Source: an uncultured Candidatus Saccharibacteria bacterium
Lineage (GTDB): Bacteria; Patescibacteriota; Minisyncoccia; Phycocordibacterales; UBA12088
Reading direction: 5' to 3'
DNA length: 64,000 nt
Assembly (NCBI GenBank): GCA_964562615.1
Contig: CAZLUD010000002.1
Location: forward strand, 153,300 to 217,299
The notes below the pieces were generated by a model. The model had not been told where the DNA came from. It saw nothing but the letters and a program-made list of their open reading frames with translations, and did not search any database. Positions 2,657-18,568 of this stretch are shown piece by piece. The first letter of the stretch is position 1. Each line of letters starts with the position of its first letter. The position numbers were made by a program, and so were the translations under genes.

Positions 2657-2670
2657 CACACATCCAATCA

Positions 2671-2708
2671 TTGTTGGTTTCCCTAACGCAAAAACTATGC
2701 GTATAATG
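2671..2708 (+). promoter_or_regulatory. Possible -10 box (TATAAT at 2703-2708) only ~8 nt upstream of the thrS ATG, with a weak TTGTTG upstream. Suggests a leaderless or very short-leader thrS mRNA.
   Basis: Seen in sequence: gcgTATAATggcggtatatggcATG. The -35 spacing is poor. Confidence 0.25.
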
Positions 2709-2715
2709 GCGGTAT

Positions 2716-4449
2716 ATGGCATCAATTGAACATGTACGACACACTCTTGCCCACCTTTTAGCACAGGCAGTACTAGAGCACTATCCTCACGCAAAGCCAA
2801 CCATTGGCCCAGCCATAGATACAGGCTTTTATTATGATTTTGATTTTGGCACTGACGGCAAGCCCGGAGACACGGAGTTAAAGGCAATCGAAAAAACAAT
2901 GAAGAAACGCCTTAATACGTGGACGGCATTTACCCATGAGGAGGTTACCCCACAAAAGGCAAAGGAGATTTTTAGTGGTAACCCCTACAAGCTCGAACTC
3001 ATTAATGAGCTCGAGGAGAAAGGCGAAACCATCACCCTCTACACCTGCGGAGGCTTTACTGATCTATGCCGTGGTGGACACACTGATGCGCCTAATAAAG
3101 AAATAGACACTGACGCATTTACACTTGAGCGTGTTGCGGGAGCCTACTGGAGAGGCGATGAACGAAACACCATGCTTACCCGCATCTATGGACTTGCCTT
3201 TTCTAACAAGACAGACCTTGATACCTACCTCCGAGATCGTGAAGAAGCAAAAAAGCGTGATCACAGAAAGATAATAAAAGACCAAGACCTTGTTACCTTT
3301 TCTGAATTAGTTGGCGCCGGACTCCCCTTGTGGACACCCAAAGGCACGCTCATTAGGCACCTCCTTGATACATTTGTATGGCGACTACGTGAGGAGCATG
3401 GATACCAGCGTGTCACTATTCCTCACATCACCAAAAAGGACCTCTATGTCACCTCTGGTCACTGGGAAAAATTTGCTGATGAGCTCTTCCGTATTACTAC
3501 TCGTGAGGGTAAAGAATACGCGCTAAAACCAATGAACTGTCCTCACCACACGCAGATATTTGCACGGCATCCTCACTCCTATAAAGACATGCCTCAGCGG
3601 TATGCAGAGACCACCATGGTCTACAGAGACGAGCAATCAGGAGAGCTTGGTGGCCTTACCCGGGTACTTTCTATTACACAAGATGACAGTCATGTATTTT
3701 GCCGTCATTCTCAAGTAAAAGAGGAATTCTTTAGGATATGGGATATTGTGGACAGATTCTATGGGGCATTCGGATTCTCACTAAGAGTACGCCTCTCATT
3801 CCACGACAAAGACCATTTTGAAAAGTACCTAGGTACCAAAGAGATATGGGAAAAGGCAGAAACCGCACTCCGCGAGATTGCTCATGAGAGAAATGCAGAT
3901 TCATTTGAGGCGCCAGGAGAGGCTGCTATGTACGGGCCAAAACTCGATTTCATGGCAAAGGACTCACTAGGCCGAGAACACCAAGTTGCTACCATACAGC
4001 TTGATATGAATCTCCCAGAGAGATTTGACCTATTTTGCATCAATGAACAAAGCGAAAAAGAGCGTATTGTGATGATTCACTGCGCCATCATGGGCTCGAT
4101 TGAGCGATTCTCTGCAGTACTCTTTGAACACACGGGAGGCGCGTTTCCACTATGGCTTTCACCCGAACAACTTCGCATTCTTCCTATTGCAGAAGCACAT
4201 CATGAATATGCAGAGACCGTAAGAAAGACGCTTGCAGCTAAAGGCTTTAGAGTAAAAATACTTCCTGCAACTGATTCACTTGGTAAGCGAATACGTGCAA
4301 GTTCACTTGAGAAAATTCCTTACACCCTAGTGATTGGAGACGCTGAAATGAACAGCGCAAGTGTCACCCTAGAGAGCCGTGACCATGGGAAATTAGGCAC
4401 CAAAACAATTGATGAAATGTTCGAGCTTCTTCAAAAAGAAATGCAGTAG
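2716..4449 (+). CDS. thrS: Threonyl-tRNA synthetase. It lacks the N-terminal TGS domain but keeps the editing (tRNA_SAD) domain, the class II core and the anticodon-binding domain.
   Basis: HxxxH (HTLAH) and CGG..H zinc motifs of the editing domain; class II core MNCPHHTQIF; PLWLSPEQ. Confidence 0.9.
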   Translation: MASIEHVRHTLAHLLAQAVLEHYPHAKPTIGPAIDTGFYYDFDFGTDGKPGDTELKAIEKTMKKRLNTWTAFTHEEVTPQKAKEIFSGNPYKLELINELEEKGETITLYTCGGFTDLCRGGHTDAPNKEIDTDAFTLERVAGAYWRGDERNTMLTRIYGLAFSNKTDLDTYLRDREEAKKRDHRKIIKDQDLVTFSELVGAGLPLWTPKGTLIRHLLDTFVWRLREEHGYQRVTIPHITKKDLYVTSGHWEKFADELFRITTREGKEYALKPMNCPHHTQIFARHPHSYKDMPQRYAETTMVYRDEQSGELGGLTRVLSITQDDSHVFCRHSQVKEEFFRIWDIVDRFYGAFGFSLRVRLSFHDKDHFEKYLGTKEIWEKAETALREIAHERNADSFEAPGEAAMYGPKLDFMAKDSLGREHQVATIQLDMNLPERFDLFCINEQSEKERIVMIHCAIMGSIERFSAVLFEHTGGAFPLWLSPEQLRILPIAEAHHEYAETVRKTLAAKGFRVKILPATDSLGKRIRASSLEKIPYTLVIGDAEMNSASVTLESRDHGKLGTKTIDEMFELLQKEMQ

Positions 4450-4482
4450 ACTCCCCTCCCTTACCCTTCCATATCTACATAA

Positions 4483-4519
4483 AAACAAACAGAGCGACAT
4501 GTGTCGCTCTGTTTGTTTT
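4483..4519. terminator. Bidirectional intrinsic-terminator hairpin between the convergent thrS and the giant surface-protein gene.
   Basis: aaacaaacagagcgaca-tgtg-tcgctctgtttgttt gives a perfect ~16-bp stem, with T/A-rich runs on both sides. Confidence 0.7.
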
Positions 4520-4542
4520 ATACGTACTCGTACGTACCGATA

Positions 4543-7500
4543 CTACTCACCTTTTCTGAAGGTGCGTCCCTTTTGCTTTTCAATAAAGTCTACCACTTTC
4601 GCGATAGCAATTTTTGCGCCTGTTTGTGAGTGGCTGTAGGTATAGTCAACACCACCAGAGAGGATTTCAATGATGTGTTCAAGCTCACCATTGCTCCAGA
4701 TAGCCGTTACCTCAAGAAGATCACGATTTGCGCGTCTTCCGCCCTCGATTCTGTTTTTGAATACATCATCAAGCTCGGTAACTACCTGCATAAGGAAGTT
4801 TTGCGCGTCATAGCCTTGGCCTGCAAGCTTTCTCAAGAAGTTGAATGACTTCTCTTCTTTGCCCTCAGCGAGCCATGAGATAAAGGTTGCGATCGCTGAA
4901 ATAGTAGTCAATCCTTCATGTGATGATGAGACCGCTCGCTCGTGTCGTGGCTCGCTGTGCGGCGTGACATGAGCAGAGAATCGTTCACGTGGCATCTGGT
5001 TCTGTGAGGTAGAACGATTGGTACCATGATATCCATCTCTATCTCTAGAATATCGTTCAAGAGAGAATCTATCAGAAGCAACTGCTGATGCCTGTGGCGC
5101 AGCTGGTGCATACTCTTCTACTGCTTTATCAGTAATGGTGTCAGCTGGTGCTTCTACTACTGTTTCTTCTGTAGTAATAGACGCAGGTACATCATGAGCA
5201 ATTTCTGTATCTCGTCGAGTCTCTCTCGTATCTCGCGCACCGTCAATATCTCGTGTTGCAATACGAAGTGCTTGTATGCGCTCACGGTTAAGCGGTATCC
5301 ATCCATCTTCACGTGGATATAGTTTCTTTGCAGCAAGAATCATTTCTTCAAGAAGCATACGTGCCTTTTGCTCATCACTATCAGAGTACGCAACAATCTG
5401 CGCAAGACCTTCAGGAGAAACAAGAACATCTGATTCATACGCGGTCTTCTCAAGCACTCCTTCAAGATATCTATCTGCAATTGCCTCCTTGTGCCACAGA
5501 CGATCAGCTGGAACAGCTGGTGCCTGTGCTTGAGCAGCAAATTGCATAGTGCCTGTTGGAAGATTGTGAGGCGGGTTGTTTGTTCGAGTTACCGGTGCCT
5601 CAGCGCGTGGCGCATGAGTAGGCGCTGGCATGTATCGTGGCTCTTCAGGTGACACATGATGTGAGTGTGCATAGTGATTATGTATCTCTTGTTGAGGCGC
5701 TCGTGGATATTCAGTTGCTGCCTCACGTGGGCTATCTACGTATCGCATTTTTTCTACTTCTCGCTCATCGAGGTATTCTCCCGCTCGTGTAAACGCGACG
5801 CGAATAAATCGGTGGAGATACTGCCTCACGATAAGGTAGTGCGTCATGATACCGGTTACCACAAGTACAGTAAGCCAGAAGAAGAAGGTAAGCAGTGGGC
5901 CAGCTTCAAATCCTGTGTACGGCACTTGAGAAAGGTACACGAAAGCAAGCGGTTGATCAGTTGGAGGCGTAATAGAAGGTGGGGTGGTTGTTGACGCGAT
6001 AGTCACTCTTGGTGGGTTAAGCCCACCGCCGCCTCCACAATTACCGTTAGGACATAGTGGTTGTAGGTCTATTCGTGCCGTACAGGTAGTAGTACCAAAT
6101 TCACCACTAAATACTCCGGTATATAGCTTGCTACTGTTTGCCACAAACTTTGCTGATCCAGACACACTCACATCATTAAGATCAGGCGTGATAGTGGTCT
6201 TGGTTACATTAGTACCACTCCATGAAAGTGTTACTTCAGTATTTTGACCTTCTACAACACGATTAGGTGTAATAGACATCTCACAGACTGGCACCTTGTT
6301 AGGTACAGTCACCGTTGCCTGACAGGTTACCACTGCGCCCGTTGCGCCTGTTGCAGTAAGGGTGTAGGTGGTGGTTTGTGTTGGTGTTACTTGTGTTGAG
6401 TTATTAGCAGTTACTGAACCGATACCCTTATCAATAGATATAGAAGTTGCTCGTAGGGTTGTCCAGGTAAGCGTTGCAGCATCACCGGCTTTTGCAAGTG
6501 TTTGAGGCGATGCGACAAGCGTACAGAATGGTGGGTCAATTGGAGTTTCTACCGTCACTGTTACCTTACAGGTCACGGTCTTTCCCTTTTCACCAGTAAA
6601 GGTACCCGTGTACTCGGTAGTAACCTCAGGTGAGACTACCTTTGAACCATTAAGCGCGATAGCGCCAATACCAGAATCTATACTTGCACCAAAGGTGTTT
6701 TGACTTGTCCACGTTATGGTTGCGCTCTCGCCTTTCTTTATCGTTGATGGTGCTACGCTCATTGCACAGACAGGATCTTGTGGCTCAGGTAGTTTTTCAA
6801 AGGCAGCACACAACGGCACGATATCGTTAGTAGATGATGCGTCTGGGTACGCAGCATGGACAGCGACCGCAGTCTTGGTGTCTTGTGATATAACCAGTTC
6901 GCTATTTACTACTGATACATCGTAATCTTTTGTATCAGCAAGATCAGGTGATGCATTTGTAGAAACAATAGTTGATCCAACCAAGTCACGCAATTTTACA
7001 AACCACTGCTCTTTTGGCTCGGTAACGATGGTTCTGTCAGTGTGATAGTCAAATGACGCAAGCGTTACTTTGTAGGTACCTTTTGCTAGCTCTGCAGGTA
7101 CTGGAGCGGTTTCTGCCGCTGAACCAGACTGATCAGATCGTATCTTACCAGTAGAGAGGTTTACTATCGTTATTCCTTGTGATGGTGAAAGTGGACATAC
7201 CGGCAATGTGTCTTGCTTTACCACAACTGGTGCAGAACACGTGATAGTCTTTCCGTTTTCTCCAACAAAGGTTCCTGTATAGGTAACGTTGGTTGTTGGT
7301 GAAAGATTTTTAGTACCACTTGCTCCTACTGAACCTACGCCATTGTCTATGGTAACTGACGTTACGTTGGTACCATTCCATGTAAGAGTGATGCTTTCAC
7401 CAAGTTTAATAACACTCTTATCTACGCTCATAGCACAGATAGGATCAGGAATTATTCTAAGTTCTCCAAAGTTGTTTCGCTCACTATGATCTCCAGGAGC

Positions 7501-10500
7501 AAGCACGATACTTGAGAACACATCATTTACTGTGTCATTTCCTCCCTTTGTTCCTATTTGATCAAACCAATCTTCATACCCCGCTGGTTGTGACTCAATA
7601 ACGGTATAAGTTCCCTGCTCAAGATTATCAAAGAGATAACATCCATCCGCGCCGGTAGTGGTGGTCTTAGTTACTGCTGAGCCACTTACCGTGGTGCCAG
7701 TAAGAGAGATGGTAGTACCAGGAATTGGTGCATCGTTAGTGTCTTTTACTTTGTTCTTGTTAGCATCAACATATACGCATCCAGATATTTTAGCTGGTGC
7801 AAGGCTCTCTACTCGCTCAAAGAGCGCACAGATTGGAATGATGCTGTTTGGATTGCTGTTTGGATATGCTGCGTGCTTAGCAGTTACCTGTGTGATGGTC
7901 TGGGTAACTTCTAGTCGATCGTTTACCACTTGTGAAAGATAGTTCTGGTCATCAGGAAGATCTCCTATAGTACCGCTCGTACCAAGTGATATAAGTCCAC
8001 CAAATCGAGCAAATGATAGGAACCATTTCTCATCAGGCTGTACTTGTCCTGGCTTTGCTGAGTGTTCATCAAATGAGGCAAGAGTGACTTTGTAGATACC
8101 ACTTGGGATCTCGGTAGTAAATGGACCCTTCTCTGAATTTGCTTTTGTCTGATCTGATCTGATGAGTCCATCACCAAAGTCAATAAGGATTTTATCCGCA
8201 CCGCCAACAAGTGGGCATGTTGGTGTTTGTGGAGGCGGCAAGACAACTATTGGTGCTGAGCAGGTGATTACTTTTCCATTTACTCCAGTTACTGAAGCTG
8301 TGTACGTAGTACTTTGTGATGGTGTCACACTTTGTGATCCATTTACCGCCACGCTACCAACGCCATTATTTATGGTGACGCTAGATGCATTCTCAGTAGT
8401 CCATACCAATGTTGCTACTCCGCCTTGGGTGATTGTGCCTGGGTTAACGGTGAGCGTACACACTGGCTCTGGCTTAGGAGAAACGGTGATTGTAGTACTG
8501 CAAGAAATAGTCTTGCCCTCATTACCTATAAAGGTAGCGGTGTAGGTGGTTGTTTGTGTTGGAGAAACAGCGCTAGAACCATTTACCGCTATAGAGCCTA
8601 CTCCATTATCAATAGAACCACTTGAAGTGTTACTTGAAGTCCATACGAGTGTTGCAGTGCCTCCTGTTTGAATTGAAGATGGGCTTGCAGAAAGCGCACA
8701 TACTGGATTTGGTGTTGGGTTAACCACAATCGTAGTCACACACGTAACACTCTTTCCTGCTTCACCCATAAAGGTTGCCCTATAGGTGGTAGTTTCTGTT
8801 GGCGCTACTGTCTTTGATCCCTGCACCTCTATGCTGCCGATATTGTTATCAAGCGATGCAGAAAGTGCGTGTTGTGATGTCCAGCTAAGAAGTACTTCTC
8901 CACCCTTTGTGATAGTAGTTGGGAAGCCAGTGAGCGTACAAATTGGATCCTTAGGTTCTGGAAGTTTTTCAAATGCTGCACAGATAGGCACGATACTGTT
9001 TGGGTTGCTGTTTGGATATGCTGCATGAGTTACTACTCCAGTTTTTACATCACCGTCTATCTTGAGATTGCTGTTTACCAGCTCCACAAGATAATCTTGC
9101 GTATCAGGAAGGTCTGCAATCGCCGATGTAGTAACTATTGTTGATCCCGTGATAGAGCGAAGCGCAAGTTCCCATGATTCGTTAGGCTGTACTTGTCCAG
9201 GCTTATTGGTGTGATCATCGTACGAAGCAAGGTATACACGGTACGATCCTTGTGGAAGGTTGAGGGCAAATGGCCCTACGGTAGCACTTGCTTGTGATGA
9301 GTTTGCCGTGATGATGTTTGTGGTAATAGGTACCACGGTAAGTCCATCACGTGGTGCAATAGGACACGTTGGCGATGTTGGTGGAGGTGTTACCGTCACC
9401 TTAGCAGAACAGGTAATGGTCTTTCCGTTGGTACCAACAAATGTTCCGATGTAGGTAGTGGTATCACTTGGCGATACTGACTTTGAACCATTTACTGCAA
9501 CTTGTCCTACCCCATCGCTAATTGATGCTGAAGCAACATTTGATGTTGTCCATGACAGTGTCGCAAGACCACCCTTTACTATCGTGCTTGGTGTAATGGT
9601 CATCTGACAAATAGGGTCTGCAAGCGGTACCACCACAATAGTCTGTGAACAGGTAATAACTGAGTTATCTGTACCAACAAATGTACCAGTGTACGTTGTA
9701 GTCTGTGTTGGAGAAACCACCTTGGTGCCAGTCGTAGAAACTGAACCAACACCACCATCTATACTTGCGCTCTTTGTGTTAGTTGAAGACCATGAAAGCG
9801 TAGTAGAACCTCCCACAGAAATAGTGGTAGGGTTTGCCGACATCGTACAGGTAGGTGGCTTTGGAGTATCAGGCAACTTTTTAAAGGCTGCACAGATAGG
9901 GATAATACTGTTAGGTGAAGAGGTATCTGGGTACGCTGCGTGTACCGCCTTTACTGATGAAGCGCTACCTATAGTGAGTGCGGAGTTTACTTTTTGAGTA
10001 AGATAATCTTGTGAATCAGCCAAATCACTTATTGCGTTTGATTGTACTCCGTTGTTTAGCTCAACAAACCAACGTTCGTTAGGTTGCACCTGCCCCACCT
10101 TGTGGGTGTGATCGTCATACGATGCAAGAGTCACGTCGTATTGTCCTGCTGCAAGGTTTACCGCAACTGGTCCCGCAATAGCACTTGATTGGCTAAGGTC
10201 AGAACGTAGTACGGTTGTACCAAAGTTTACAATGGTAGTATCCGCAGATGGAGTGAGCGGACAAGTTGGTCCTGCTACTGGTTTTTTATCAAATGCGACA
10301 CATACAGGCACGACACTATTGTATTTAGTATTCGGCGTTGCGTGGCGCGCGGTTATTTTTGCGATTGGCTCACCAATGAGTGCATTGGTAGCAAAGTTTG
10401 CAGTTACTGATGCTTCTTTTACTCCATCAGCAAGATCTGCGGTTGGTCCATAGGTCGCGATGGTGTTTCCTACTCCATTATATATATCTAGGTACCACTG

Positions 10501-11319
10501 CTCGCTCTTTTGCTCATTTACATTAGTAGATGCTCTATTTGAGTATCCATCATAAGAATACCCAGTGATGGTGTAGTCACCAGACTCTATAGAGACAAAC
10601 TCGCTGTGGCTTGTTGGTGATCCTGCTTGTCCAGCAATAAGACGCACAAACGCGGTGCCGTCTTTAAACTCAACAATAGTTCTTCCCGCTTGTGGAGTAA
10701 GTGGACAGCTAGGAGTGTAAAACTCTGTGCTTGGAGTAGTTGGGGTAGTAGGAGTGGTTGGTGTGGTAGGAACATCAATTCGTTCAAATGATGCGCACAC
10801 AGGATACACACTGTTTGGCGAACCATTTTTATCAAAGGTGACATGCTGCGCGCGTAGCATCGCAATATCGTTTTTGAGTACAAATCCAGTTTCAACCACG
10901 GTAGTTTTGGTGTCTTGCTCTACAAAATCAGCAAGGTCTGAAGTACCCTTTGCCCATTGCCAGGTAGACTGTGCTCCACTTTCAAAACCTATCGAATATG
11001 ATTCGCTAGGTTGCTTTGCAGTTTGTGTTCTTCCGGTGTATCCATCAAATGATACTGCGGTGATTTTGTAGGTACCCTTAGGTAGATTTGTTGCGGCACG
11101 TACATACCCGTCCTCGTAGGTTCCGGTTGAAATGAGCTTCTTTGTTGGAAACGTCACTATAGTAGTGTTTGCTCCCGCAACAAGTGGACATGTTGGAACC
11201 GAAAAATCAGACGTTCCAGTCCCTGTCGCAGAAACTCGGTCAGATGAAAGGATCACGCTCACGGCGGATACGACAATCATCAAAGAAAGAAATGCTGATC
11301 CAATAAGTACTCGTTTCAT
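4543..11319 (-). CDS. Giant (2258 aa) surface protein or adhesin. Layout: signal peptide, then alternating Cys-bounded beta-sandwich modules (~110 aa, ending HAAYPNSNPNSIIPICAAFEKLPEP) and Ig-like modules (~85 aa, ..TLSWSS.N..SASID.GVGSV..), an SdrD-B/Cna-B-like domain, a Gly/Thr/Pro-rich stalk, an internal VPYTG + TM + RQYLHRFIR sorting-signal-like segment, and a ~430-aa cytoplasmic tail.
   Basis: One uninterrupted ORF. N-terminal MKRVLIGSAFLSLMIVVSAVSVILS signal. At least 9 Ig-like repeats. CVYVDANKNKVKD...GADGCYLFDNLEQGTYTV matches the SdrD B-like fold. TM helix LLTFFFWLTVLVVTGIMTHYLIV. Confidence 0.8.
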   Translation of the reverse strand: MKRVLIGSAFLSLMIVVSAVSVILSSDRVSATGTGTSDFSVPTCPLVAGANTTIVTFPTKKLISTGTYEDGYVRAATNLPKGTYKITAVSFDGYTGRTQTAKQPSESYSIGFESGAQSTWQWAKGTSDLADFVEQDTKTTVVETGFVLKNDIAMLRAQHVTFDKNGSPNSVYPVCASFERIDVPTTPTTPTTPTTPSTEFYTPSCPLTPQAGRTIVEFKDGTAFVRLIAGQAGSPTSHSEFVSIESGDYTITGYSYDGYSNRASTNVNEQKSEQWYLDIYNGVGNTIATYGPTADLADGVKEASVTANFATNALIGEPIAKITARHATPNTKYNSVVPVCVAFDKKPVAGPTCPLTPSADTTIVNFGTTVLRSDLSQSSAIAGPVAVNLAAGQYDVTLASYDDHTHKVGQVQPNERWFVELNNGVQSNAISDLADSQDYLTQKVNSALTIGSASSVKAVHAAYPDTSSPNSIIPICAAFKKLPDTPKPPTCTMSANPTTISVGGSTTLSWSSTNTKSASIDGGVGSVSTTGTKVVSPTQTTTYTGTFVGTDNSVITCSQTIVVVPLADPICQMTITPSTIVKGGLATLSWTTSNVASASISDGVGQVAVNGSKSVSPSDTTTYIGTFVGTNGKTITCSAKVTVTPPPTSPTCPIAPRDGLTVVPITTNIITANSSQASATVGPFALNLPQGSYRVYLASYDDHTNKPGQVQPNESWELALRSITGSTIVTTSAIADLPDTQDYLVELVNSNLKIDGDVKTGVVTHAAYPNSNPNSIVPICAAFEKLPEPKDPICTLTGFPTTITKGGEVLLSWTSQHALSASLDNNIGSIEVQGSKTVAPTETTTYRATFMGEAGKSVTCVTTIVVNPTPNPVCALSASPSSIQTGGTATLVWTSSNTSSGSIDNGVGSIAVNGSSAVSPTQTTTYTATFIGNEGKTISCSTTITVSPKPEPVCTLTVNPGTITQGGVATLVWTTENASSVTINNGVGSVAVNGSQSVTPSQSTTYTASVTGVNGKVITCSAPIVVLPPPQTPTCPLVGGADKILIDFGDGLIRSDQTKANSEKGPFTTEIPSGIYKVTLASFDEHSAKPGQVQPDEKWFLSFARFGGLISLGTSGTIGDLPDDQNYLSQVVNDRLEVTQTITQVTAKHAAYPNSNPNSIIPICALFERVESLAPAKISGCVYVDANKNKVKDTNDAPIPGTTISLTGTTVSGSAVTKTTTTGADGCYLFDNLEQGTYTVIESQPAGYEDWFDQIGTKGGNDTVNDVFSSIVLAPGDHSERNNFGELRIIPDPICAMSVDKSVIKLGESITLTWNGTNVTSVTIDNGVGSVGASGTKNLSPTTNVTYTGTFVGENGKTITCSAPVVVKQDTLPVCPLSPSQGITIVNLSTGKIRSDQSGSAAETAPVPAELAKGTYKVTLASFDYHTDRTIVTEPKEQWFVKLRDLVGSTIVSTNASPDLADTKDYDVSVVNSELVISQDTKTAVAVHAAYPDASSTNDIVPLCAAFEKLPEPQDPVCAMSVAPSTIKKGESATITWTSQNTFGASIDSGIGAIALNGSKVVSPEVTTEYTGTFTGEKGKTVTCKVTVTVETPIDPPFCTLVASPQTLAKAGDAATLTWTTLRATSISIDKGIGSVTANNSTQVTPTQTTTYTLTATGATGAVVTCQATVTVPNKVPVCEMSITPNRVVEGQNTEVTLSWSGTNVTKTTITPDLNDVSVSGSAKFVANSSKLYTGVFSGEFGTTTCTARIDLQPLCPNGNCGGGGGLNPPRVTIASTTTPPSITPPTDQPLAFVYLSQVPYTGFEAGPLLTFFFWLTVLVVTGIMTHYLIVRQYLHRFIRVAFTRAGEYLDEREVEKMRYVDSPREAATEYPRAPQQEIHNHYAHSHHVSPEEPRYMPAPTHAPRAEAPVTRTNNPPHNLPTGTMQFAAQAQAPAVPADRLWHKEAIADRYLEGVLEKTAYESDVLVSPEGLAQIVAYSDSDEQKARMLLEEMILAAKKLYPREDGWIPLNRERIQALRIATRDIDGARDTRETRRDTEIAHDVPASITTEETVVEAPADTITDKAVEEYAPAAPQASAVASDRFSLERYSRDRDGYHGTNRSTSQNQMPRERFSAHVTPHSEPRHERAVSSSHEGLTTISAIATFISWLAEGKEEKSFNFLRKLAGQGYDAQNFLMQVVTELDDVFKNRIEGGRRANRDLLEVTAIWSNGELEHIIEILSGGVDYTYSHSQTGAKIAIAKVVDFIEKQKGRTFRKGE

Positions 11320-11402
11320 AATATGTATCGTGTTGTCTACCTGCTAGTAATAGTATTCTACATCCCAATCACCACCAATTGCTGGCAGTTGTCCACTATC
11401 AA

Positions 11403-12167
11403 TTATCTTGAGAGCGGATAACTTCCAACAAAATCTGCCTCTACAATAAATCGGTCTTGCTTTGTACCAAACGAATTGCACGTCGCAAGGGTAAGGCGCT
11501 TTCTGTCATTCGTGAAGTCAACACGAACATCAGACGCCTGATCCATACGCACCGCCACTACCTTGTATATATTTTCCTGAGAGCCGTTCTGCACCTTTAT
11601 AAGTGCCCCCTCAGTAAGCTTGCCAATATTATTAAACGCCTTGAAATTTTGGTTTCTAATATTTGGCAATCCTGATGAATGAGCAAAAATAAACATGTTG
11701 CCATTGTCTATCATGCTTCCTGACCCAGGAAATCGAACCGCTCCATATAGGAGTGCGCTATCAAGGACTTCAATGTCTCTTGAGAGCGGATTTTTAACCG
11801 CTACATCAACACCGATATCATCGATGATGATGCGAGTTGGTTTATCAGCAACCGACACCTTTGCCTCCATTGATGCAACTGGGTCGATATATACCCCTGT
11901 TGTTTGCGCAACTCTTTCAGACGTCTGTGCTGGTGTTGGAGTTGACGCTGTAGCTGGTGGCGCTGCCTCAACAAACGTAACTGGCACAAGACGAGAGCTG
12001 AGGGTTACGGTAACTTCTTCCTCTGGTAGCTGCTCTAAAACTTCCTCAGTAGTAATTGTTGTTTCTTCAACCATTACTAGTTCAGGATAAAAATCAATTT
12101 TAAAGAGCAGTATCCCCAACAACGCAAAAATAAGTGCAAACACTCCGATATATTCAAAGATTCTCAT
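11403..12167 (-). CDS. Sortase family transpeptidase, membrane-anchored. The start is placed at the internal ATG giving MRIFEYIGVFALIF..; the ORF-track start at 12278 is an alternative.
   Basis: N-terminal TM anchor; IFAHSSG (His region); LTLATCNSFG (the TLxTC Cys motif); downstream Arg in DRFIVEA. The C-terminal half aligns by eye with S. aureus SrtA (LTLITCDDY...KRKIFVA). Confidence 0.75.
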   Translation of the reverse strand: MRIFEYIGVFALIFALLGILLFKIDFYPELVMVEETTITTEEVLEQLPEEEVTVTLSSRLVPVTFVEAAPPATASTPTPAQTSERVAQTTGVYIDPVASMEAKVSVADKPTRIIIDDIGVDVAVKNPLSRDIEVLDSALLYGAVRFPGSGSMIDNGNMFIFAHSSGLPNIRNQNFKAFNNIGKLTEGALIKVQNGSQENIYKVVAVRMDQASDVRVDFTNDRKRLTLATCNSFGTKQDRFIVEADFVGSYPLSR

Positions 12168-12372
12168 GGTTGATGAGGCGCTTCGAAGATTATCATTAGT
12201 GAGTCTATTACTCATGCAAGTGAGGAGTTCAAAGACCAAAAGCGTGTTGACGCATGGCGACAACAGACTACTAGTCACCCGTATATACTACCCCAGATTA
12301 TTGACAAAGTCAAGTTTCCGTGTCGGTCTTCCTTTGTCAGAAATATACGGGTGGTGGTACCATATATATACT

Positions 12373-13500
12373 ATGCAAACACATTCCCCGAAGCCAAAAT
12401 TACCAAACACCCTTCTTACAAGAGACACTGTAGAAAAAGTAGTACTCTACACCGCAATAACTGGAATTGTAGTACTTGCGATTGCCCTTTTTGGTGCTGC
12501 CTTCATAAAAATCCCTACATCAATTCAAACTGCTGCGGTAGAAATTAGCTCGGTGTTTTATCCTGCAGATACTCGTCTACAACTTTCGCTTGAAAGTAGA
12601 TACGTAGAGAACGGTGTCCCTCTTACCCTTTCATGGAGCGCGCCTGCCACTGATATTCCGGGATCATTTTTGTTTGCTTACAAATGCGCACAGGGGCTTA
12701 CCGTGTTTATGGAAAACAGAGATGGTGAGTACGAACCAATTAATTGCGAACAACCAACCGAACCATTAGTAAGTGGCAATCAAGTACGCATTCGCCTCAC
12801 CTCTACTGAAAACCGTTTTCTTGATGTACCCCTTGCGGTTGCCTTTTACCCTGAAGGCGATCCATCACCACTATTTTTCTCACGTGCGTTAGTAACGGTA
12901 GAAAATCCACGCATTGCATTTAGTCCTTCTTTGAGGCCAGATGGCACTGTTGCAACATCAACTACCCCAGATACACCGACACCGCCTGAGACCACCACGC
13001 CTACCCCACCTGCAAAAAAACCTACCGAGCAAACAACACCGCGACAGGGTGCTAGCACCTCAGAATCATTCCAGATTCCTCGCATCGATGGATCTGCGCA
13101 AACCGCCCCTCGTACCCTCACCGGAAAAAGTGATCTGTCAGTAAAAATAATGAATGTAGGATACATTGACGATGCAACAAAAGGATTTGTTATCACCAAT
13201 ACCGTTGAAAAAAACAATGTCAGCGCAGTTATGTTTGCCGTTGAGAACACAGGTACCAATTCATCAGGTTCGTGGGACTTTGCTGCAATACTTCCTACAA
13301 ATCCTCCTTACATATTTCAATCACCAACACAAAGAGAGCTTCTTCCTGGTGAAAGAATTGAATTCACCATGGGCTTTGACCGAGTAAAGGAAGGCGCATC
13401 TTCAGTTGAAATAAAAATCAATATCGACCCTTCACAAAAAATCTCAGAATCAAACGAGACAAACAACTCTACCATCGCTACGATTGGTATCCGTAACTAA
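12373..13500 (+). CDS. Membrane-anchored protein with an N-terminal TM, a conserved 2-Cys beta domain, a Thr/Pro-rich linker and a C-terminal CARDB-like domain (paralogue 1). Start placed at MQTHSPKPKLP; the ORF-track start at 12166 would overlap the sortase gene.
   Basis: C-terminal region DLSVKIMNVGYID...VENTGTNSSGSW...ESNETNNSTIATI fits the CARDB pattern, which ends in E.NE.NN. Paralogous to 14195..15364. Confidence 0.6.
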   Translation: MQTHSPKPKLPNTLLTRDTVEKVVLYTAITGIVVLAIALFGAAFIKIPTSIQTAAVEISSVFYPADTRLQLSLESRYVENGVPLTLSWSAPATDIPGSFLFAYKCAQGLTVFMENRDGEYEPINCEQPTEPLVSGNQVRIRLTSTENRFLDVPLAVAFYPEGDPSPLFFSRALVTVENPRIAFSPSLRPDGTVATSTTPDTPTPPETTTPTPPAKKPTEQTTPRQGASTSESFQIPRIDGSAQTAPRTLTGKSDLSVKIMNVGYIDDATKGFVITNTVEKNNVSAVMFAVENTGTNSSGSWDFAAILPTNPPYIFQSPTQRELLPGERIEFTMGFDRVKEGASSVEIKINIDPSQKISESNETNNSTIATIGIRN

Positions 13501-13514
13501 AACAAAAGCATACA

Positions 13515-13544
13515 AGCCGCTGCGGTAACCGCAGCGGCTTGTTT
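13515..13544. terminator. Hairpin between two convergent genes: CARDB paralogue 1 (+) and the Cys-rich secreted protein (-).
   Basis: aagccgctgcgg-taa-ccgcagcggctt gives a perfect 12-bp stem, followed by gttt. Confidence 0.6.
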
Positions 13545-13548
13545 AGGC

Positions 13549-13995
13549 TTATGTCTCTGGGCGCTTCTTCCAGCCACAGTAGAAAACCCCAGGGCATGGA
13601 CTTGGCCACTGTTCTAAATAGGGTTTTCGTGAGCAAATTACAGCCTCAATTCCTTCTGGCATTTTTATTTTGTCACCCGCTTCTTCCATTTTGTCCAGAA
13701 AGTCTCGAGGAACGGGACACCACGACCCATCAACAAGTACGTGTTCTTTCCCTAGGGCGTCATACTTAATGACGGTCTGTCGGCATTCACCTCCTTTACC
13801 TCCGTCGCAACATGTTCCTCCCTTCAATGTTTCGAGTTGTTCAACAATACGATCGGCATGCAGTAGGCTGTGACCGAAGCCGTAATCCCCCACGTTCTGT
13901 CCTGGTGGTTTTGGCGTCCATTTTTTCTGATCCGCACCAAAGGAAGCGTCGGGAAAAAATAATACCAATGCACAGAGCGTGACGATCTTTTTCAT
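13549..13995 (-). CDS. Small secreted Cys-rich protein (148 aa, 8 Cys) of unknown function. Start taken at MKKIVTLCALVLF, which has an AAGGAGAG RBS.
   Basis: Signal peptide MKKIVTLCALVLFFPDASFGA; GGTCCDGGKGGEC motif; RBS ggtaaaggagagtgtt upstream of the ATG at 13995. Confidence 0.6.
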   Translation of the reverse strand: MKKIVTLCALVLFFPDASFGADQKKWTPKPPGQNVGDYGFGHSLLHADRIVEQLETLKGGTCCDGGKGGECRQTVIKYDALGKEHVLVDGSWCPVPRDFLDKMEEAGDKIKMPEGIEAVICSRKPYLEQWPSPCPGVFYCGWKKRPET

Positions 13996-14101
13996 AACAC
14001 TCTCCTTTACCTCTACTAAGTGAGGCACTGTACCTTTTATGCCCTCTCATGGTGACATCGTCAAATAGACAAACGCTCTCTCGTATTGTAAAAAGGGGTT
14101 C

Positions 14102-14130
14102 TTGACATTACTAAACGAGCGTGTTACTAT
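14102..14130 (+). promoter_or_regulatory. Sigma-70-like promoter TTGACA-17 nt-TACTAT upstream of CARDB paralogue 2.
   Basis: ttgaca(14102-14107) ttactaaacgagcgtgt tactat(14125-14130). Confidence 0.45.
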
Positions 14131-14194
14131 GCTCCCGCATCAAGTAGTCGGTGCACACAGACCAATTATTCGTTTCGTATTATCAGTATTCATT

Positions 14195-15364
14195 ATGAAT
14201 CAGCAATATCAGAATCCGGGAGATGTGCAGGTAACCATCGAGCACCGCTCAAAGGTTGAAAGAGCAATAACACGCGCACTAGCAGTTATCGGCGTCATTG
14301 CCATTGTCGTTATTGTTATATGGGCAGGGCTTATGGTGGTTCGATCACTACCAACCGCAATTACCGCAGTACAAAATGCTGCCGTAGGACTTACTCAGGT
14401 GTTTTCACCAAAGAAAGAAGAGGCTATTAGCCTTTCAATGAGCACGCTTGTTGCTCGATCTGGTGCTCCATACACCATTGCGTGGGGACACACTACTACT
14501 GAGTCAACTGGCACCTATGCCCTTACCTACTCATGTAGAGATGGACTTTCAGTAGAATCACCTAATACTGATGGTACCTACCAGAGCGCATTTTGTGATA
14601 CTCCATTTAACTTTGCACGATCAAATAGCGAGATTCGCATTGTGCCTACATCAACACAAAATAGATACCTTGATGTACCAATGACCATCTCATACTTCCC
14701 TGAAGGAGCATCAACTCCAACAGTACAGAAGACATTCGTCATGACCATTGAGAATCCATCTGTATCGGTAAGTCCAAGTACTACTGGTGGAACAGTAGCA
14801 ACATCAACTGCCGCTACAAGCACACCAGTCACCACACCGACTACAACTACTCGCCCTACTACAGGCACCACACGACCAACGGGGACAACCACCGTTACCC
14901 CAGGCACTCGTACAGACAATACCTACCAAATTCCTGGTACTGGTGGCAGTACTCCTGGAAGCACTACCGCAAAACCTATCAATCCTAACGGAAAGCCTGA
15001 CCTTGCTGTCAACGTACTAGACGTTGGATACATTGACGCTGCTACCAACAAGTTTGTTGCTGCAAGCTCAGTAAACCGAAGTGAGCGAGTAGCAGTACGA
15101 TTTGAAATTGAGAACAAAGGAAACAATGTCTCAGACTCATGGATGTTCAGCGCGATACTTCCTACCTATCCTCCATTTGTATTCCAATCTCAAACGCAAC
15201 AGAAGCTAAATCCTGGTGAGAAGATTGAATACACCCTTGGATTCGATAAGGTAGCAACTGGAAACTCAGTAGATCTAAAAATATTTGCTGACCAGAGCCT
15301 CAAGATTAACGAATCTAATGAGGAGAACAACATCAAGATTGTTACTATCAACATCAGAGACTAG
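14195..15364 (+). CDS. Membrane-anchored CARDB-like domain protein, paralogue 2. Start placed at MNQQYQNPG, downstream of the predicted promoter.
   Basis: Same architecture as 12373..13500: TM; conserved block TSTQNRYLDVPMTISYFPEGASTP (vs TSTENRFLDVPLAVAFYPEGDPSP); T/P-rich linker; C-terminal ...ENKGNNVSDSW...ESNEENNIKIVTI. Confidence 0.6.
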   Translation: MNQQYQNPGDVQVTIEHRSKVERAITRALAVIGVIAIVVIVIWAGLMVVRSLPTAITAVQNAAVGLTQVFSPKKEEAISLSMSTLVARSGAPYTIAWGHTTTESTGTYALTYSCRDGLSVESPNTDGTYQSAFCDTPFNFARSNSEIRIVPTSTQNRYLDVPMTISYFPEGASTPTVQKTFVMTIENPSVSVSPSTTGGTVATSTAATSTPVTTPTTTTRPTTGTTRPTGTTTVTPGTRTDNTYQIPGTGGSTPGSTTAKPINPNGKPDLAVNVLDVGYIDAATNKFVAASSVNRSERVAVRFEIENKGNNVSDSWMFSAILPTYPPFVFQSQTQQKLNPGEKIEYTLGFDKVATGNSVDLKIFADQSLKINESNEENNIKIVTINIRD

Positions 15365-15397
15365 TAACCGGTATACCCTCCATACCGTAGCCTAGAA

Positions 15398-15429
15398 TAG
15401 CGGCAGAATTCATACGAATTCTGCCGCTA
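15398..15429 (+). terminator. Terminator-like hairpin after CARDB paralogue 2.
   Basis: tagcggcagaattc-atac-gaattctgccgcta gives a 14-bp perfect stem. Confidence 0.5.
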
Positions 15430-15465
15430 TTGACATATACCAACATTGTGTAGTATAATACTGGT

Positions 15466-16122
15466 ATGAATAGAGCAATACCAATGTATAGCGCTACCTA
15501 CATACCGTCATCAAGTGTCTCACAAAAGGAGATAGATGCGATTATTACCCGCGCCACTATCTCGTCAAAGAACGAGCTCAAACACTCTGACGCAGATGAA
15601 AAATCATTTGCAGAACACCTCAACATTGATGAGCTGTACTTGAATGAAGATGCGCTCACTGAGGCTATCCGCTCATGTGAAGAGTCTACCCTTCCCCACG
15701 AATTGGATGACGAGCTATTGATGAGTCATGATGACATGTCAGATGCGTTCGGAAATAAGGTGAGTATCTCTCAAAAAGGCAACCACATCCATCTAAGCGA
15801 TGACGCAAAGCTTGATCTACAAAAAGTCATTCCTCGCTCAAAGCTAGCAACAAAGAGTGTTGCGATGCGAAGTAACCATATCCTTAAAGACTTTGTCGAG
15901 TACTTTGGTGGTAGCGTGTACCAGGGCGCAAAAACAATAAGCACTACACTAAGCGCAGAAGGTCATGCATCAATTGCTCAGCATGCAGAGCGTGTCCAAA
16001 ATCGAAAGCGTGCAAACCTTGGAGAAGATGGCTCAGAAATACATACCTTCCTCATCGGATACCCTCTTGTATTCTTCTTCAATCTTCTTGTCCTTGTCGC
16101 ATTTGGACTCTACCCTGCTTAA
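15466..16122 (+). CDS. Hypothetical acidic protein with a C-terminal tail-anchor TM helix.
   Basis: ORF with the C-terminal hydrophobic segment LIGYPLVFFFNLLVLVAFGL; no recognisable domain. Confidence 0.4.
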   Translation: MNRAIPMYSATYIPSSSVSQKEIDAIITRATISSKNELKHSDADEKSFAEHLNIDELYLNEDALTEAIRSCEESTLPHELDDELLMSHDDMSDAFGNKVSISQKGNHIHLSDDAKLDLQKVIPRSKLATKSVAMRSNHILKDFVEYFGGSVYQGAKTISTTLSAEGHASIAQHAERVQNRKRANLGEDGSEIHTFLIGYPLVFFFNLLVLVAFGLYPA

Positions 16123-16129
16123 ACAATAC

Positions 16130-16405
16130 TTAGCTAACTAGCGATAAGAAAAATAGCGCCATACCTTCACCTAGTGGAGTAAATACAAACAAAGAAAGTG
16201 GTGTGTAGCCGAGGAGAAATCCAAAGGCACACCACTTTTTTTGATCCATGAGTAGTGAGCCAATAAACACAAGACCAATAATCGCAATAAGAAGGCGTGC
16301 AATCATCGCAGGAAAATCAACCACAGCCATAAGTCCCAAGAGTAACAAAGAGAGAAATATTGCGATAGCTGTCCAAGCAAGCGTGTCCCGGAAAAATCTG
16401 TTCAT
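16130..16405 (-). CDS. Small membrane protein (91 aa, 3 TM).
   Basis: Hydrophobic ORF packed between neighbouring genes. Confidence 0.35.
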   Translation of the reverse strand: MNRFFRDTLAWTAIAIFLSLLLLGLMAVVDFPAMIARLLIAIIGLVFIGSLLMDQKKWCAFGFLLGYTPLSLFVFTPLGEGMALFFLSLVS

Positions 16406-16437
16406 GGTAGTCGTACTGGGTTGATTACGTAATAAGA

Positions 16438-18471
16438 TTAAATATCAAGTGTTGCGTTACGTGCATTTGACTGGATAAATGATTTTCTGTTGGTAACATC
16501 GGTGCCCATAAGAATATCAAATATTTTATCAGCCTCACGAGCATCATCAATAGTCACCTGCTTAAGGACTCTTCGGGCGGGATCCATTGTAGTCTCCCAC
16601 AACTCACCGTAGTTCATTTCTCCAAGACCTTTGTATCGTTGAATAGAAACTTTAACCGCCTTTTTCTTCTCGTCAACAACATCAACCTCTTCTGCTTCTT
16701 CGTTTTCAGATTCTTCAAAATCCGCCTCAATCACCCCAAGAGAAACAAGAATCTTATTCTTTTCTTCATCATTATACGCGTAGTGAAGGTCCTTCCCCTT
16801 GGTGATTTTATACAATGGTGGCTGAGCAATGTAGACATGCCCCGCAGAAATAAGCTGCGGCAAGTATCGATAAAATAGAGTGAGGAATAGGGTGCGTATG
16901 TGCGCGCCGTCTACGTCGGCATCGGTAGCGATAATAATCTTGTGATATCGCAAACGAGAAATATCAAAGGTGTCTCCAATAGCGGTACCGAGCGCGATAA
17001 GTAACTCTTTTACCCCACGCGCGGTCACAATTTTATCAAGGCGTGCACGCTCTACATTTAATACTTTTCCCCACATCGGCAAAACCGCTTGTATTCTTCT
17101 GTCTCTACCCTGCTTTGCTGATCCTCCTGCAGAATCTCCCTCTACAATAAATAGCTCAGCTTCTTCTGCTGCCTTTGTCTGGCAATCAGCAAGCTTTCCT
17201 GGCAAGGTCATACCCTCGAGCATTCCTTTTCGAAGGACGGAATCTTTTGCTGCTTTTGCTGCCTTTCGCGCCTTGAGGGCAAGTATTGATTTACCAATAA
17301 TAAATCGCGCGTCATCAGGATTCTCTTCCAAGTATTCGTTAAACGCTTCTGAGAATACCGTCTCGACAGCTCCCCTTGCCTCAACTGATCCAAGCTTGGC
17401 CTTTGTCTGCCCCTCAAACTGAATCTCGCGTAGCTTTACCGATACCACTGCGGTAAGACCCTCAAGCACATCATCACCAGTAAAGTTTTCGTCCTTCTCT
17501 TTAATGAGATTATTTTTGCGTCCGTAGGTATTAAGCGTACGAGTAAGCGCCGTTTTAAAGCCGGTTATGTGCGTACCGCCTTCTGGGTTGTATATGTTGT
17601 TCGCAAAGCCAAGTATGCGTGGTGAAAAGTCATCAATATATTGAAGAGAAACTTCAACCGCGACATTATCGATTTCTTTCTCTACATAAAAAATATTTTT
17701 GTGTACTGGCTTTTGTGTGTGGTTATAAAACCGCACCAACGACTTAAGTCCGCCCTCAAAGTAAAACGACATTGACGGTACATCGAGTGCCAAGTCTCTA
17801 AACCAAAACACACTGTCAAGATCAATCTTGCCCTCATAGTCTCTGGCATCAAAAATAGAGATACGTAGCGCCTTTACTAAATACGCCTGCTGTCTGAGGT
17901 GGTCTACGATTTTATTCCATGAAAACGCTATCTCAGGAAATATCTCAGCGTCTGGCTCAAAGGTAACAATGGTGCCGTATGCTTTCGATGCTGAAACTTT
18001 CTTAACCGCCGCCTTTCTTTTGCCTCTGCTGTATTCTTGGAAAAACTTTCCTCCGTCGCGATGCACCTCAACACTCGCAAACACAGAGAGCGCATTTACA
18101 ACCGACACACCCACGCCGTGGAGTCCACCAGAAACTTTGTACCCCTCGCCACCAAATTTTCCTCCCGCATGGAGTGTGGTCATGATAGTTTCAAGCGCAG
18201 ACACTTTTGTCTGCTTGTGCATATCGACAGGAATACCGCGTCCATTGTCTGCGACGCGTATTCTATTGTTTGGCAACAACACTACTTCAATATCATTTGC
18301 ATACCCACCCATCGCCTCATCGCGACTGTTATCAAATACCTCCCAGATCAAGTGGTGAAGCCCATCAGGGCCAGTGGTACCAATATACATACCCGGTCGC
18401 TTGCGTACCGGCTCAAGCCCTTCTAGTACTTGAATGTCTTCTGCGCTGTAGTGATGTCCTTTTGCATTCAT
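16438..18471 (-). CDS. gyrB: DNA gyrase subunit B. Start at MNAKGHHYSAEDIQVLEGLE; the ORF-track start at 18513 is less likely.
   Basis: RPGMYIG; GHKL ATPase motifs (GLHGVGVSVVNALS); TOPRIM EGDSAGGSAKQGRDR; C-terminal ...NATLDI. Confidence 0.9.
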   Translation of the reverse strand: MNAKGHHYSAEDIQVLEGLEPVRKRPGMYIGTTGPDGLHHLIWEVFDNSRDEAMGGYANDIEVVLLPNNRIRVADNGRGIPVDMHKQTKVSALETIMTTLHAGGKFGGEGYKVSGGLHGVGVSVVNALSVFASVEVHRDGGKFFQEYSRGKRKAAVKKVSASKAYGTIVTFEPDAEIFPEIAFSWNKIVDHLRQQAYLVKALRISIFDARDYEGKIDLDSVFWFRDLALDVPSMSFYFEGGLKSLVRFYNHTQKPVHKNIFYVEKEIDNVAVEVSLQYIDDFSPRILGFANNIYNPEGGTHITGFKTALTRTLNTYGRKNNLIKEKDENFTGDDVLEGLTAVVSVKLREIQFEGQTKAKLGSVEARGAVETVFSEAFNEYLEENPDDARFIIGKSILALKARKAAKAAKDSVLRKGMLEGMTLPGKLADCQTKAAEEAELFIVEGDSAGGSAKQGRDRRIQAVLPMWGKVLNVERARLDKIVTARGVKELLIALGTAIGDTFDISRLRYHKIIIATDADVDGAHIRTLFLTLFYRYLPQLISAGHVYIAQPPLYKITKGKDLHYAYNDEEKNKILVSLGVIEADFEESENEEAEEVDVVDEKKKAVKVSIQRYKGLGEMNYGELWETTMDPARRVLKQVTIDDAREADKIFDILMGTDVTNRKSFIQSNARNATLDI

Positions 18472-18568
18472 ATACGTATAGTGACTAGAGTATACCACAA
18501 AACCACGCTTCATTATAGCGATAATTCATTGACTAACCCCCAAAAATACGACCTATTGCGGAGTGTAA

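Follow-up and report, generated by a model that had tools for sequence, protein, structure and literature searches.

What two membrane proteins with C-terminal CARDB domains, encoded beside a sortase gene, do for the cell is the question raised by positions 12,373 to 15,364 of a 64,000-nucleotide stretch of Patescibacteria DNA (contig CAZLUD010000002.1 of assembly GCA_964562615.1, positions 153,300 to 217,299 of the forward strand), the whole of which was analysed and is referred to here as the window. Much of bacterial diversity falls within the Patescibacteria, whose way of life is attachment to other cells, and to our knowledge almost nothing has been established about how they build their attachment surface. 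A comparison of the window with related loci revealed a conserved cassette in Patescibacteria made up of a sortase, a substrate with a PYTG sorting signal and a CARDB partner, with a Rosetta-stone fusion of sortase and CARDB domain in one clade. The two CARDB proteins, paralogues A and B, and the genes on which the argument depends are located in the window as follows (ORF, open-reading frame; TM, transmembrane):

4543..11319, minus strand: giant secreted surface protein of 2258 aa with multiple immunoglobulin (Ig)-like domains, an ORF call and the predicted sortase substrate
5911..5934, minus strand: sorting-signal core LSQVPYTG (giant-protein residues 1796-1803), after which come the TM helix FEAGPLLTFFFWLTVLVVTGIM and basic residues
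11403..12167, minus strand: sortase of 254 aa, from a Pfam Sortase match
12168..12372, no strand: intergenic region of 205 bp between the divergent sortase and paralogue A, with weak promoter-like sites on both strands
12373..13500, plus strand: paralogue A, 375 aa, adjacent to the sortase (ORF, Pfam CARDB, AlphaFold2 model)
13549..13995, minus strand: cysteine-rich secreted orphan, 148 aa with 8 Cys (ORF, signal-peptide-like N-terminus)
14195..15364, plus strand: paralogue B, 389 aa (ORF, Pfam CARDB, same layout as A)

The ORF coordinates of A and B were as given in the initial annotation, and the motifs quoted there are present. The divergent arrangement of A and the sortase, which had been put at about 200 bp, has a gap of 205 bp when computed with the 254-aa sortase start of the public gene calls.

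The first two distant homologues of A and B to be located (at L005 and, from a ‘Sungbacteria’ metagenome-assembled genome (MAG), at L007) both adjoin sortases. A scan of one genome per GTDB species yielded 18 loci, all in Patescibacteria (Paceibacterota, Kaiserbacteria, Sungiibacteriota or Parcubacteria), and the adjacent ORF was matched by a custom sortase hidden Markov model in 18 of 18. A metagenome scan using a different motif yielded 80 loci, with a sortase adjacent in nearly all that had enough flanking sequence. After removal of redundancy and of loci with less than 900 bp of upstream sequence, 74 informative loci were left, 71 of which had a sortase adjacent to, or fused with, the partner. 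The sortase was divergent in 64 (median gap about 110 bp; two of these were first scored as ‘downstream’ owing to ORF over-extension), in another orientation in two and fused with the CARDB domain in five, while three loci had no visible sortase. An earlier proposal that A and B, the adhesin and the cysteine-rich protein form a surface-attachment module was borne out for A and B, which go with the sortase and the giant adhesin, and failed for the cysteine-rich gene, which is not in the unit.

The five fusion proteins, one of them at L015 9008-10381, are distinct, with lengths of 432-459 aa, and each consists of an N-terminal cytoplasmic peptide, a TM helix, a sortase domain, a linker of about 40 aa and a CARDB domain. 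Their His/Cys/Arg residues are intact, their CARDB domains are of the family type (E about 1e-41) and the fusion loci contain no separate partner gene. A different kind of variation was found at 26 loci with short partners (about 210-290 aa), in which the N-terminal domain is absent and the TM helix, linker, CARDB domain and sortase adjacency are kept. This indicates that CARDB is the constant element and that the N-terminal domain is optional.

A conserved neighbourhood, perhaps reflecting co-regulation, would also be seen if A and B were ordinary stand-alone surface or adhesion proteins with no direct sorting role. Surface proteins of many kinds have CARDB domains, the stalk of A and B would hold CARDB far from the membrane, and the thrS-gyrB region is syntenic as a whole, so that some of the adjacency could be inherited gene order. 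We consider this unlikely, however, given that the tight divergent pairing persists across lineages at 25-40% identity while the surrounding genes vary, and given that the clade with the CARDB-sortase fusion has lost the separate gene. Near-universal divergent pairing, a fusion that replaces the partner gene and a dedicated substrate together argue that the CARDB protein works with the sortase and is not merely near it. As to its mode of action, we infer that A and B are probably membrane-tethered, non-catalytic sortase partners, in which CARDB serves as a docking or positioning module at the side of the catalytic domain.

Several points weigh against this interpretation. The link between sortase and partner is drawn entirely from gene neighbourhood and the fusion, and adjacency was counted in one direction only, from partner loci towards the sortase. 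Both scans (98 loci) used motifs internal to CARDB, and branches lacking those motifs were sampled by only three look-ups from a motif-free profile search, two with a Pfam-annotated sortase directly upstream and the third uninformative, as the partner starts at the contig end. All five fusions share an MPPENLPT N-terminus and therefore represent one clade and one evolutionary event. The three loci without a visible sortase are L053, which has a flank of 1 kb only, L093, which looks chimeric, and L087, a reduced locus. This genome also keeps two partner copies, the other loci having one each.

In the mechanism that we propose, the partner would be held in the membrane by one N-terminal helix with its N-terminus inside and C-terminus outside (N-in/C-out). 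Outside the membrane it would present a conserved juxtamembrane segment, in some members an Ig-like domain stabilised by a disulfide, then a long and flexible stalk and, at the end, a CARDB domain that probably binds metal. The divergently encoded sortase would recognise ‘(Y)LSQ[VI]PYTG’ before the TM helix of the giant adhesin and transfer the adhesin to the cell envelope. Through its TM helix and juxtamembrane segment, the partner may lie alongside the sortase in the membrane, much as actinobacterial SafA does with SrtA, with the tethered CARDB next to the catalytic domain docking or positioning the substrate or the wall. A requirement of the sortase for this partner function would be met in one clade by building CARDB into the sortase polypeptide.

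SafA appears to be the best precedent for the partner family. This small N-in/C-out membrane protein of Actinobacteria is encoded beside the housekeeping sortase, uses an exoplasmic FPW minimotif to bind the sortase, shields it from signal peptidase and is found as a SafA-SrtA fusion in Bifidobacterium dentium (Ramirez et al. 2022, PMC9282373). Like SafA, the partner is non-catalytic and is encoded by a gene that adjoins the sortase, and some lineages have it as a fusion with the enzyme. The single N-terminal helix and the conserved juxtamembrane segment of the partner may correspond to the N-in/C-out topology and the exoplasmic minimotif of SafA, as far as prediction goes. SafA is, however, small, without an ectodomain and with the motif FPW, whereas the partner motif is ...AAVSL[TS]S[IV]FVPA[DE]E and the family, at 240-550 aa, has in addition an Ig-like domain, a Thr/Pro stalk and at least one CARDB domain. 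The likeness is drawn from genomic logic and predicted topology.

The same architecture was found in A and B, in agreement with the initial annotation. The two proteins share 41% identity over 335 aligned residues (E = 2e-76) and a layout of N-terminal TM helix, Ig-like domain with one Cys pair, Thr/Pro stalk and C-terminal CARDB, as seen from Pfam and the AlphaFold2 model, and the motifs TSTENRFLDVPLAVAFYPEG / TSTQNRYLDVPMTISYFPEG and ESNE(T/E)NN were confirmed in both. At the C-terminus, Pfam CARDB (PF07705) scored 35.5 bits in A and 32.7 bits in B, above the gathering score of 22.7, which upholds the earlier assignment of this domain; a DUF11 profile, suggested as a further check, gave no match to A or B at E<=1. 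Each protein contains exactly two Cys residues (C105 and C125 in A, C114 and C134 in B), both of which are invariant across 60 aligned family members. In A, the TM helix spans about residues 20-45 (20-43 in the AlphaFold2 model) and the juxtamembrane motif is TAAVEISSVFYPAD. The Ig-like N-terminal domain covers residues 68-180 (nt 12574-12912) and holds C105/C125, the Thr/Pro stalk residues 184-250 (nt 12922-13122) and the CARDB domain residues 251-375 (nt 13123-13497). In B, the juxtamembrane motif is NAAVGLTQVFSPK and CARDB covers about residues 262-389; B is nearer to the family consensus than A.

An AlphaFold2 model built from the 60-member alignment shows two beta-sandwich domains, at residues 68-180 and 250-375, both with predicted local distance difference test (pLDDT) values above 90, which are preceded by the TM helix and joined by a disordered stalk of low pLDDT, the Thr+Pro+Ser content of the stalk being 55% and 63% in the two paralogues. 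The C-terminal domain superposed on the solved CARDB structure 3IDU (Foldseek, 3idu_A) with a template-modelling score of 0.80 and a root-mean-square deviation of 1.9 A over 123 columns, and a phmmer search of the PDB matched the CARDB protein 2L0D (E = 1.8e-4). The N-terminal domain profile gave nothing significant against PDB sequences and Pfam, and among 23 such domains there was one weak BatD/DUF11-like match (0.01). The most fitting description of the N-terminal domain is that of an Ig-like domain, so far uncharacterised, with one predicted disulfide. The possibility that it is a copy of the 2-Cys Ig repeat of the giant protein was dropped, since the hhalign alignment extended no further than the first 24 columns, with a probability of 43%.

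Both A and B are real genes under strong purifying selection. When compared with the relative at locus L002 (public MAG GCA_964409035.1, same region, about 88-97% protein identity), dN/dS was 0.061 for A and 0.045 for B, alongside 0.065 for the sortase, 0.042 for the giant protein and 0.017 for gyrB. The topology of A and B is predicted to be N-in/C-out and single pass. A cleavable signal peptide on the partner was considered and is unlikely, as at least about 15 residues separate the hydrophobic core from any A-x-A.

Neither C-terminus (...ATIGIRN in A and ...VTINIRD in B, the last CARDB strand) carries a sorting signal, and a motif scan found such a signal in the giant protein only. Given the absence of a C-terminal signal, A and B are not sortase substrates, and since CARDB is within the sortase polypeptide in one clade, they are better described as sortase-associated partners than as adhesins themselves.

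The enzyme of the cassette is a sortase, with a Pfam Sortase (PF04203) score of 60.7 bits against a gathering threshold of 26.6 and with the triad motifs of His (FIFAHSSG), Cys (LTLATCNSFG) and Arg (DRFIVEA). It nevertheless fell below every cut-off of the NCBIfam sortase class models (A-F/GN), the best scores being 24.0-31.4 bits against cut-offs of 39-165, and even the nearest PDB sortases gave no better than E about 1e-4. Between its TM helix and the catalytic domain lies an acidic/Thr/Pro linker, unusually long at about 95 residues, so that the sortase catalytic domain and the partner CARDB are both on long flexible tethers. There is no obvious AXA site after the TM helix.

At most loci, the sortase gene also has a neighbour encoding a secreted protein in which a hydrophobic helix comes after a P[YFW]TG-type motif. 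In 32 non-redundant sortase neighbours selected for this motif, including the 2258-aa protein of the window, the consensus was PLAFVYLSQ[IV]PYTG[FL] and then a TM helix; L(-4), P, Y, T and G were constant in all 32, although P, T and G had been set by the selecting pattern, which also limited the choice at the remaining two positions. The giant protein carries ...LAFVYLSQVPYTGFEAGPLLTFFFWLTVLVVTGIM... at residues 1790-1825. It has a signal peptide and many 2-Cys Ig-like modules, with Pfam matches to SdrD_B (2.4e-13) and SpaA (2.2e-7), and past the sorting signal it continues through a TM helix into a cytoplasmic tail of 455 aa. An NCBIfam scan of this protein gave no match anywhere, including the sorting-signal region.

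Most PYTG-signal proteins continue for 240-460 residues after the TM helix (window 4543-5910; L012, L013, L014, L016, L031, L032, L043, L068 and others). These cytoplasmic tails, which had no match in Pfam, contain a first module, …LISPEGL…AK..YPREDGWLLLNKE…, and a second, …F[VI]..L..GD...VF..LR.L..G…LD..YR.R…WS..LE..I.IL...D.SY...TG.KLAL.RA. Sortase cleavage would leave a TM-plus-cytoplasmic fragment behind, and the size and conservation of the tails suggest that sorting may be coupled to something intracellular. At the reduced locus L087, a free-standing 174-aa ORF (2600-3124, minus strand) ends in the second module (…NYLDQNLGTKIAIVRMLRLK) beside a short partner (3364-3990, plus strand), the sortase and PYTG protein both being absent from the 3.3 kb upstream. 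The PYTG proteins of the fusion clade (L015 5619-7649, L019 2612-5590, L020 3605-4723 and L023 6510-7172) end 18-27 residues past the motif, for example with YLSQVPYTGFLGKILNGVKFIMVTVPTFIMVNI or YLSQVPYTGLLEKEKIIQRVFFIVN, and have no clear TM helix or basic tail.

That cleavage would remove large cytoplasmic tails is one reason to ask whether A and B could be acceptors, with the acyl-enzyme resolved on an amine of the partner. The adhesin would then be joined covalently to the N-terminally anchored stalk protein and not to peptidoglycan, which would make sense as another way of holding it in the membrane, and the partner is always present with sortase and substrate. In the 60-sequence alignment, however, no Lys reached >=90% conservation, let alone invariance; Lys is most frequent at position 296, where 44 of 60 members have it and both A and B have Asn. 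The partner N-terminus is buried as a TM anchor, and the enzyme of the fused clade would have to modify itself, allowing a single turnover. We therefore regard an acceptor role as distinctly improbable for A and B. The residues that are invariant in this alignment are G97, C105 and C125 in the N-terminal domain and D254, G263, N292, G294, F303, P308, P325 and N364 in CARDB.

The partners have one N-terminal hydrophobic helix each, and the juxtamembrane consensus P.AFS.LASA[IA]VS[LI][TS]S[IV]FVPA[DE]E is strongly conserved and predicted to be exoplasmic. This segment (AAVYLSQVF.P) resembles the upstream half of the sorting signal AFVYLSQVPYTG. With a position-specific scoring matrix derived from the substrates, 21 of 85 partners scored above 95% of shuffles and the best site was in the juxtamembrane region in 46 of 85, about 30% being expected; B had a z of 2.8 and A scored poorly. 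The TM helix of the stand-alone sortases ends in [IL]DF[VL]PE, which echoes the FVPA[DE]E of the partner (common ‘FVP.E’). From sequence, the likeness could reflect a pseudo-substrate or coincidence. In the window, it is located at 12373-12560 and 14195-14480, with statistical significance in about a quarter of partners only.

A more elaborate interpretation can be built on this resemblance, namely a distinct three-component surface-display system of Patescibacteria (class Paceibacteria) in which the partner juxtamembrane segment is a non-cleavable pseudo-substrate docked in the sortase, gating or targeting the enzyme. Its parts would be the unclassified sortase, bitopic ‘(Y)LSQ[VI]PYTG’ substrates and an obligatory CARDB partner, AAV[SY]L[STG][SQ][VI]F.P of the partner would mimic AFVYLSQ[VI]P of the signal, and the conserved cytoplasmic domains of the substrates would be released or left behind on cleavage. 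A and B could then be two differently tuned gates for one sortase. Our confidence in this gating scheme is low, and the docking or positioning role proposed above for CARDB is kept as the preferred explanation.

Dedicated sortase/target cassettes are known from Gram-positive bacteria, where PMC8416519, citing Haft 2012, mentions LPXTG surface proteins with class A-F sortases. The present cassette likewise places a Cys-transpeptidase (His/Cys/Arg) beside a secreted multi-Ig protein with P-x-T-G, a helix and basic residues. In contrast, the signal here is (Y)LSQ[VI]PYTG with a conserved upstream half and the sortase fails all NCBIfam class models. The substrates mostly keep 240-460 conserved cytoplasmic residues where classical ones have a short basic tail only, and a CARDB-bearing third component is near-obligatory. 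Class C pilus loci are similar in that a sortase is clustered with several surface-protein genes and a substrate has an SpaA/SdrD-B-like domain, but A and B have neither a sorting signal nor a pilin-motif Lys and nothing suggests polymerisation. With known CARDB proteins (PF07705; PF1109 of Pyrococcus furiosus, 3IDU/2KL6; 2L0D), the partner shares the fold and the signature of D-L at strand 1, N-x-G, and E-x-N-E-x-N-N at the last loop; those proteins are mostly found on the surface of archaea or bacteria, with no role assigned to them.

The literature searched contains no description of a CARDB protein as a sortase partner or sortase domain. The literature searched on CPR/Patescibacteria sortases, sorting signals and CARDB does not describe the cassette, and a full-text search for ‘PYTG’ with sortase returned nothing relevant. 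The cassette links three parts, a PYTG sorting signal, a sortase outside the recognised classes and a near-obligatory CARDB partner family, and points to adhesins displayed by Patescibacteria. It would give a CARDB subfamily its first functional context and would extend the idea of sortase-associated membrane factors, as known from SafA, beyond Actinobacteria. A sortase is encoded in more than half of genomes of the Candidate Phyla Radiation (CPR) (PMC6744442).

Present annotations of the family go no further than ‘hypothetical’ or ‘CARDB domain-containing’. When 1.84 billion representatives were searched exhaustively with a profile, this retrieved 1,360 clusters at 50% identity with E<=1e-3, 695 of them at E<=1e-30, and these are mostly 310-400 aa long and matched end to end. 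Word-indexed homologue searches returned 4 and 3 matches only and were nearly blind to the family, probably because words from the low-complexity stalk filled the candidate list.

The old duplication first proposed for A and B was supported. B is as near to other lineages as to A (41% identity to P0009, the representative of another lineage, and 39% to A), yet neighbour-joining trees group A, the A orthologue, B and P0009 in a clade of 3-5 taxa, with 50 of 60 bootstraps in support, which together indicate that the duplication is lineage-restricted but old. Identity to the orthologue in the relative is 88.5% for A and 94.9% for B, indicating that A has diverged faster than B.

Between A and B, the initial annotation had placed a 148-aa signal-peptide protein with 8 Cys on the opposite strand, and this ORF is present; it had also suggested that the protein is a partner or ligand of A and B, a suggestion that the comparisons do not support. 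A conserved three-gene surface module, with the cysteine-rich protein as partner or ligand of both CARDB paralogues, would fit the position of the gene, physically between A and B, and the gene looks real, with AGGAG upstream and a signal-peptide-like N-terminus that contains one of the 8 Cys. In the relative, however, A and B are 245 bp apart with no gene between them, and the DNA alignment from the stop of A to the promoter of B shows a clean indel of about 450 bp. No comparable gene was found at the roughly 100 related loci, so the trio is not conserved in relatives. The protein is an orphan: a search of 5.8 billion protein clusters returned a 99%-identical copy as the sole match, seven near-identical sequences, all of the same population, make up its cluster (about 15 billion proteins covered), and no match was obtained in Pfam, NCBIfam, PHROGs or PDB. 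Its gene also has a slightly different GC content (0.48, compared to 0.44-0.45 for A and B). A three-gene module of this kind is scarcely credible, and with the gene absent from the 88% relative and from every other locus there is no evidence for the protein as partner or ligand. By comparison of these sequences, the cysteine-rich gene is a recent strain- or species-specific insertion outside the conserved cassette.

The remaining features near A and B are as follows:

13512..13542, no strand: G+C-rich hairpin with a 14 bp stem between A and the cysteine-rich gene; a similar hairpin lies 3' of A in the relative L002
14102..14130, plus strand: promoter-like TTGACA-17-TACTAT 5' of B, kept in the 88%-identical relative
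15484-16122, plus strand: small predicted membrane protein of 212 aa between B and gyrB
16130-16405, minus strand: small predicted membrane protein of 91 aa between B and gyrB

The hairpin is probably a terminator for the convergent A and cysteine-rich genes. Longer starts are possible for B (TTG 14102, or a 411-aa call), and the conservation of the promoter-like sequence at 14102-14130 in the relative favours ATG 14195 as the start. The two small membrane ORFs are kept in the 88% relative with dN/dS of about 0.09 and have no family assignment, and the position between B and gyrB holds different unknown genes in other lineages (for example 274 and 387 aa in L109).

The chromosomal neighbourhood dnaE, thrS ... 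gyrB, often with pheS/pheT, was observed in the window (2716-18513) and in L005, L015, L017, L019, L023, L109 and L110, which are divergent Paceibacteria-type genomes. As the cassette lies repeatedly between thrS/dnaE and gyrB in several lineages, it looks like an old, vertically inherited feature. Several cassette-bearing third-party annotation (TPA) MAGs (L010-L012, L022-L024, L026) are titled ‘uncultured Candidatus Saccharibacteria’, a label that may be generic or mistaken, and their gene content and synteny match Paceibacteria/Parcubacteria loci.

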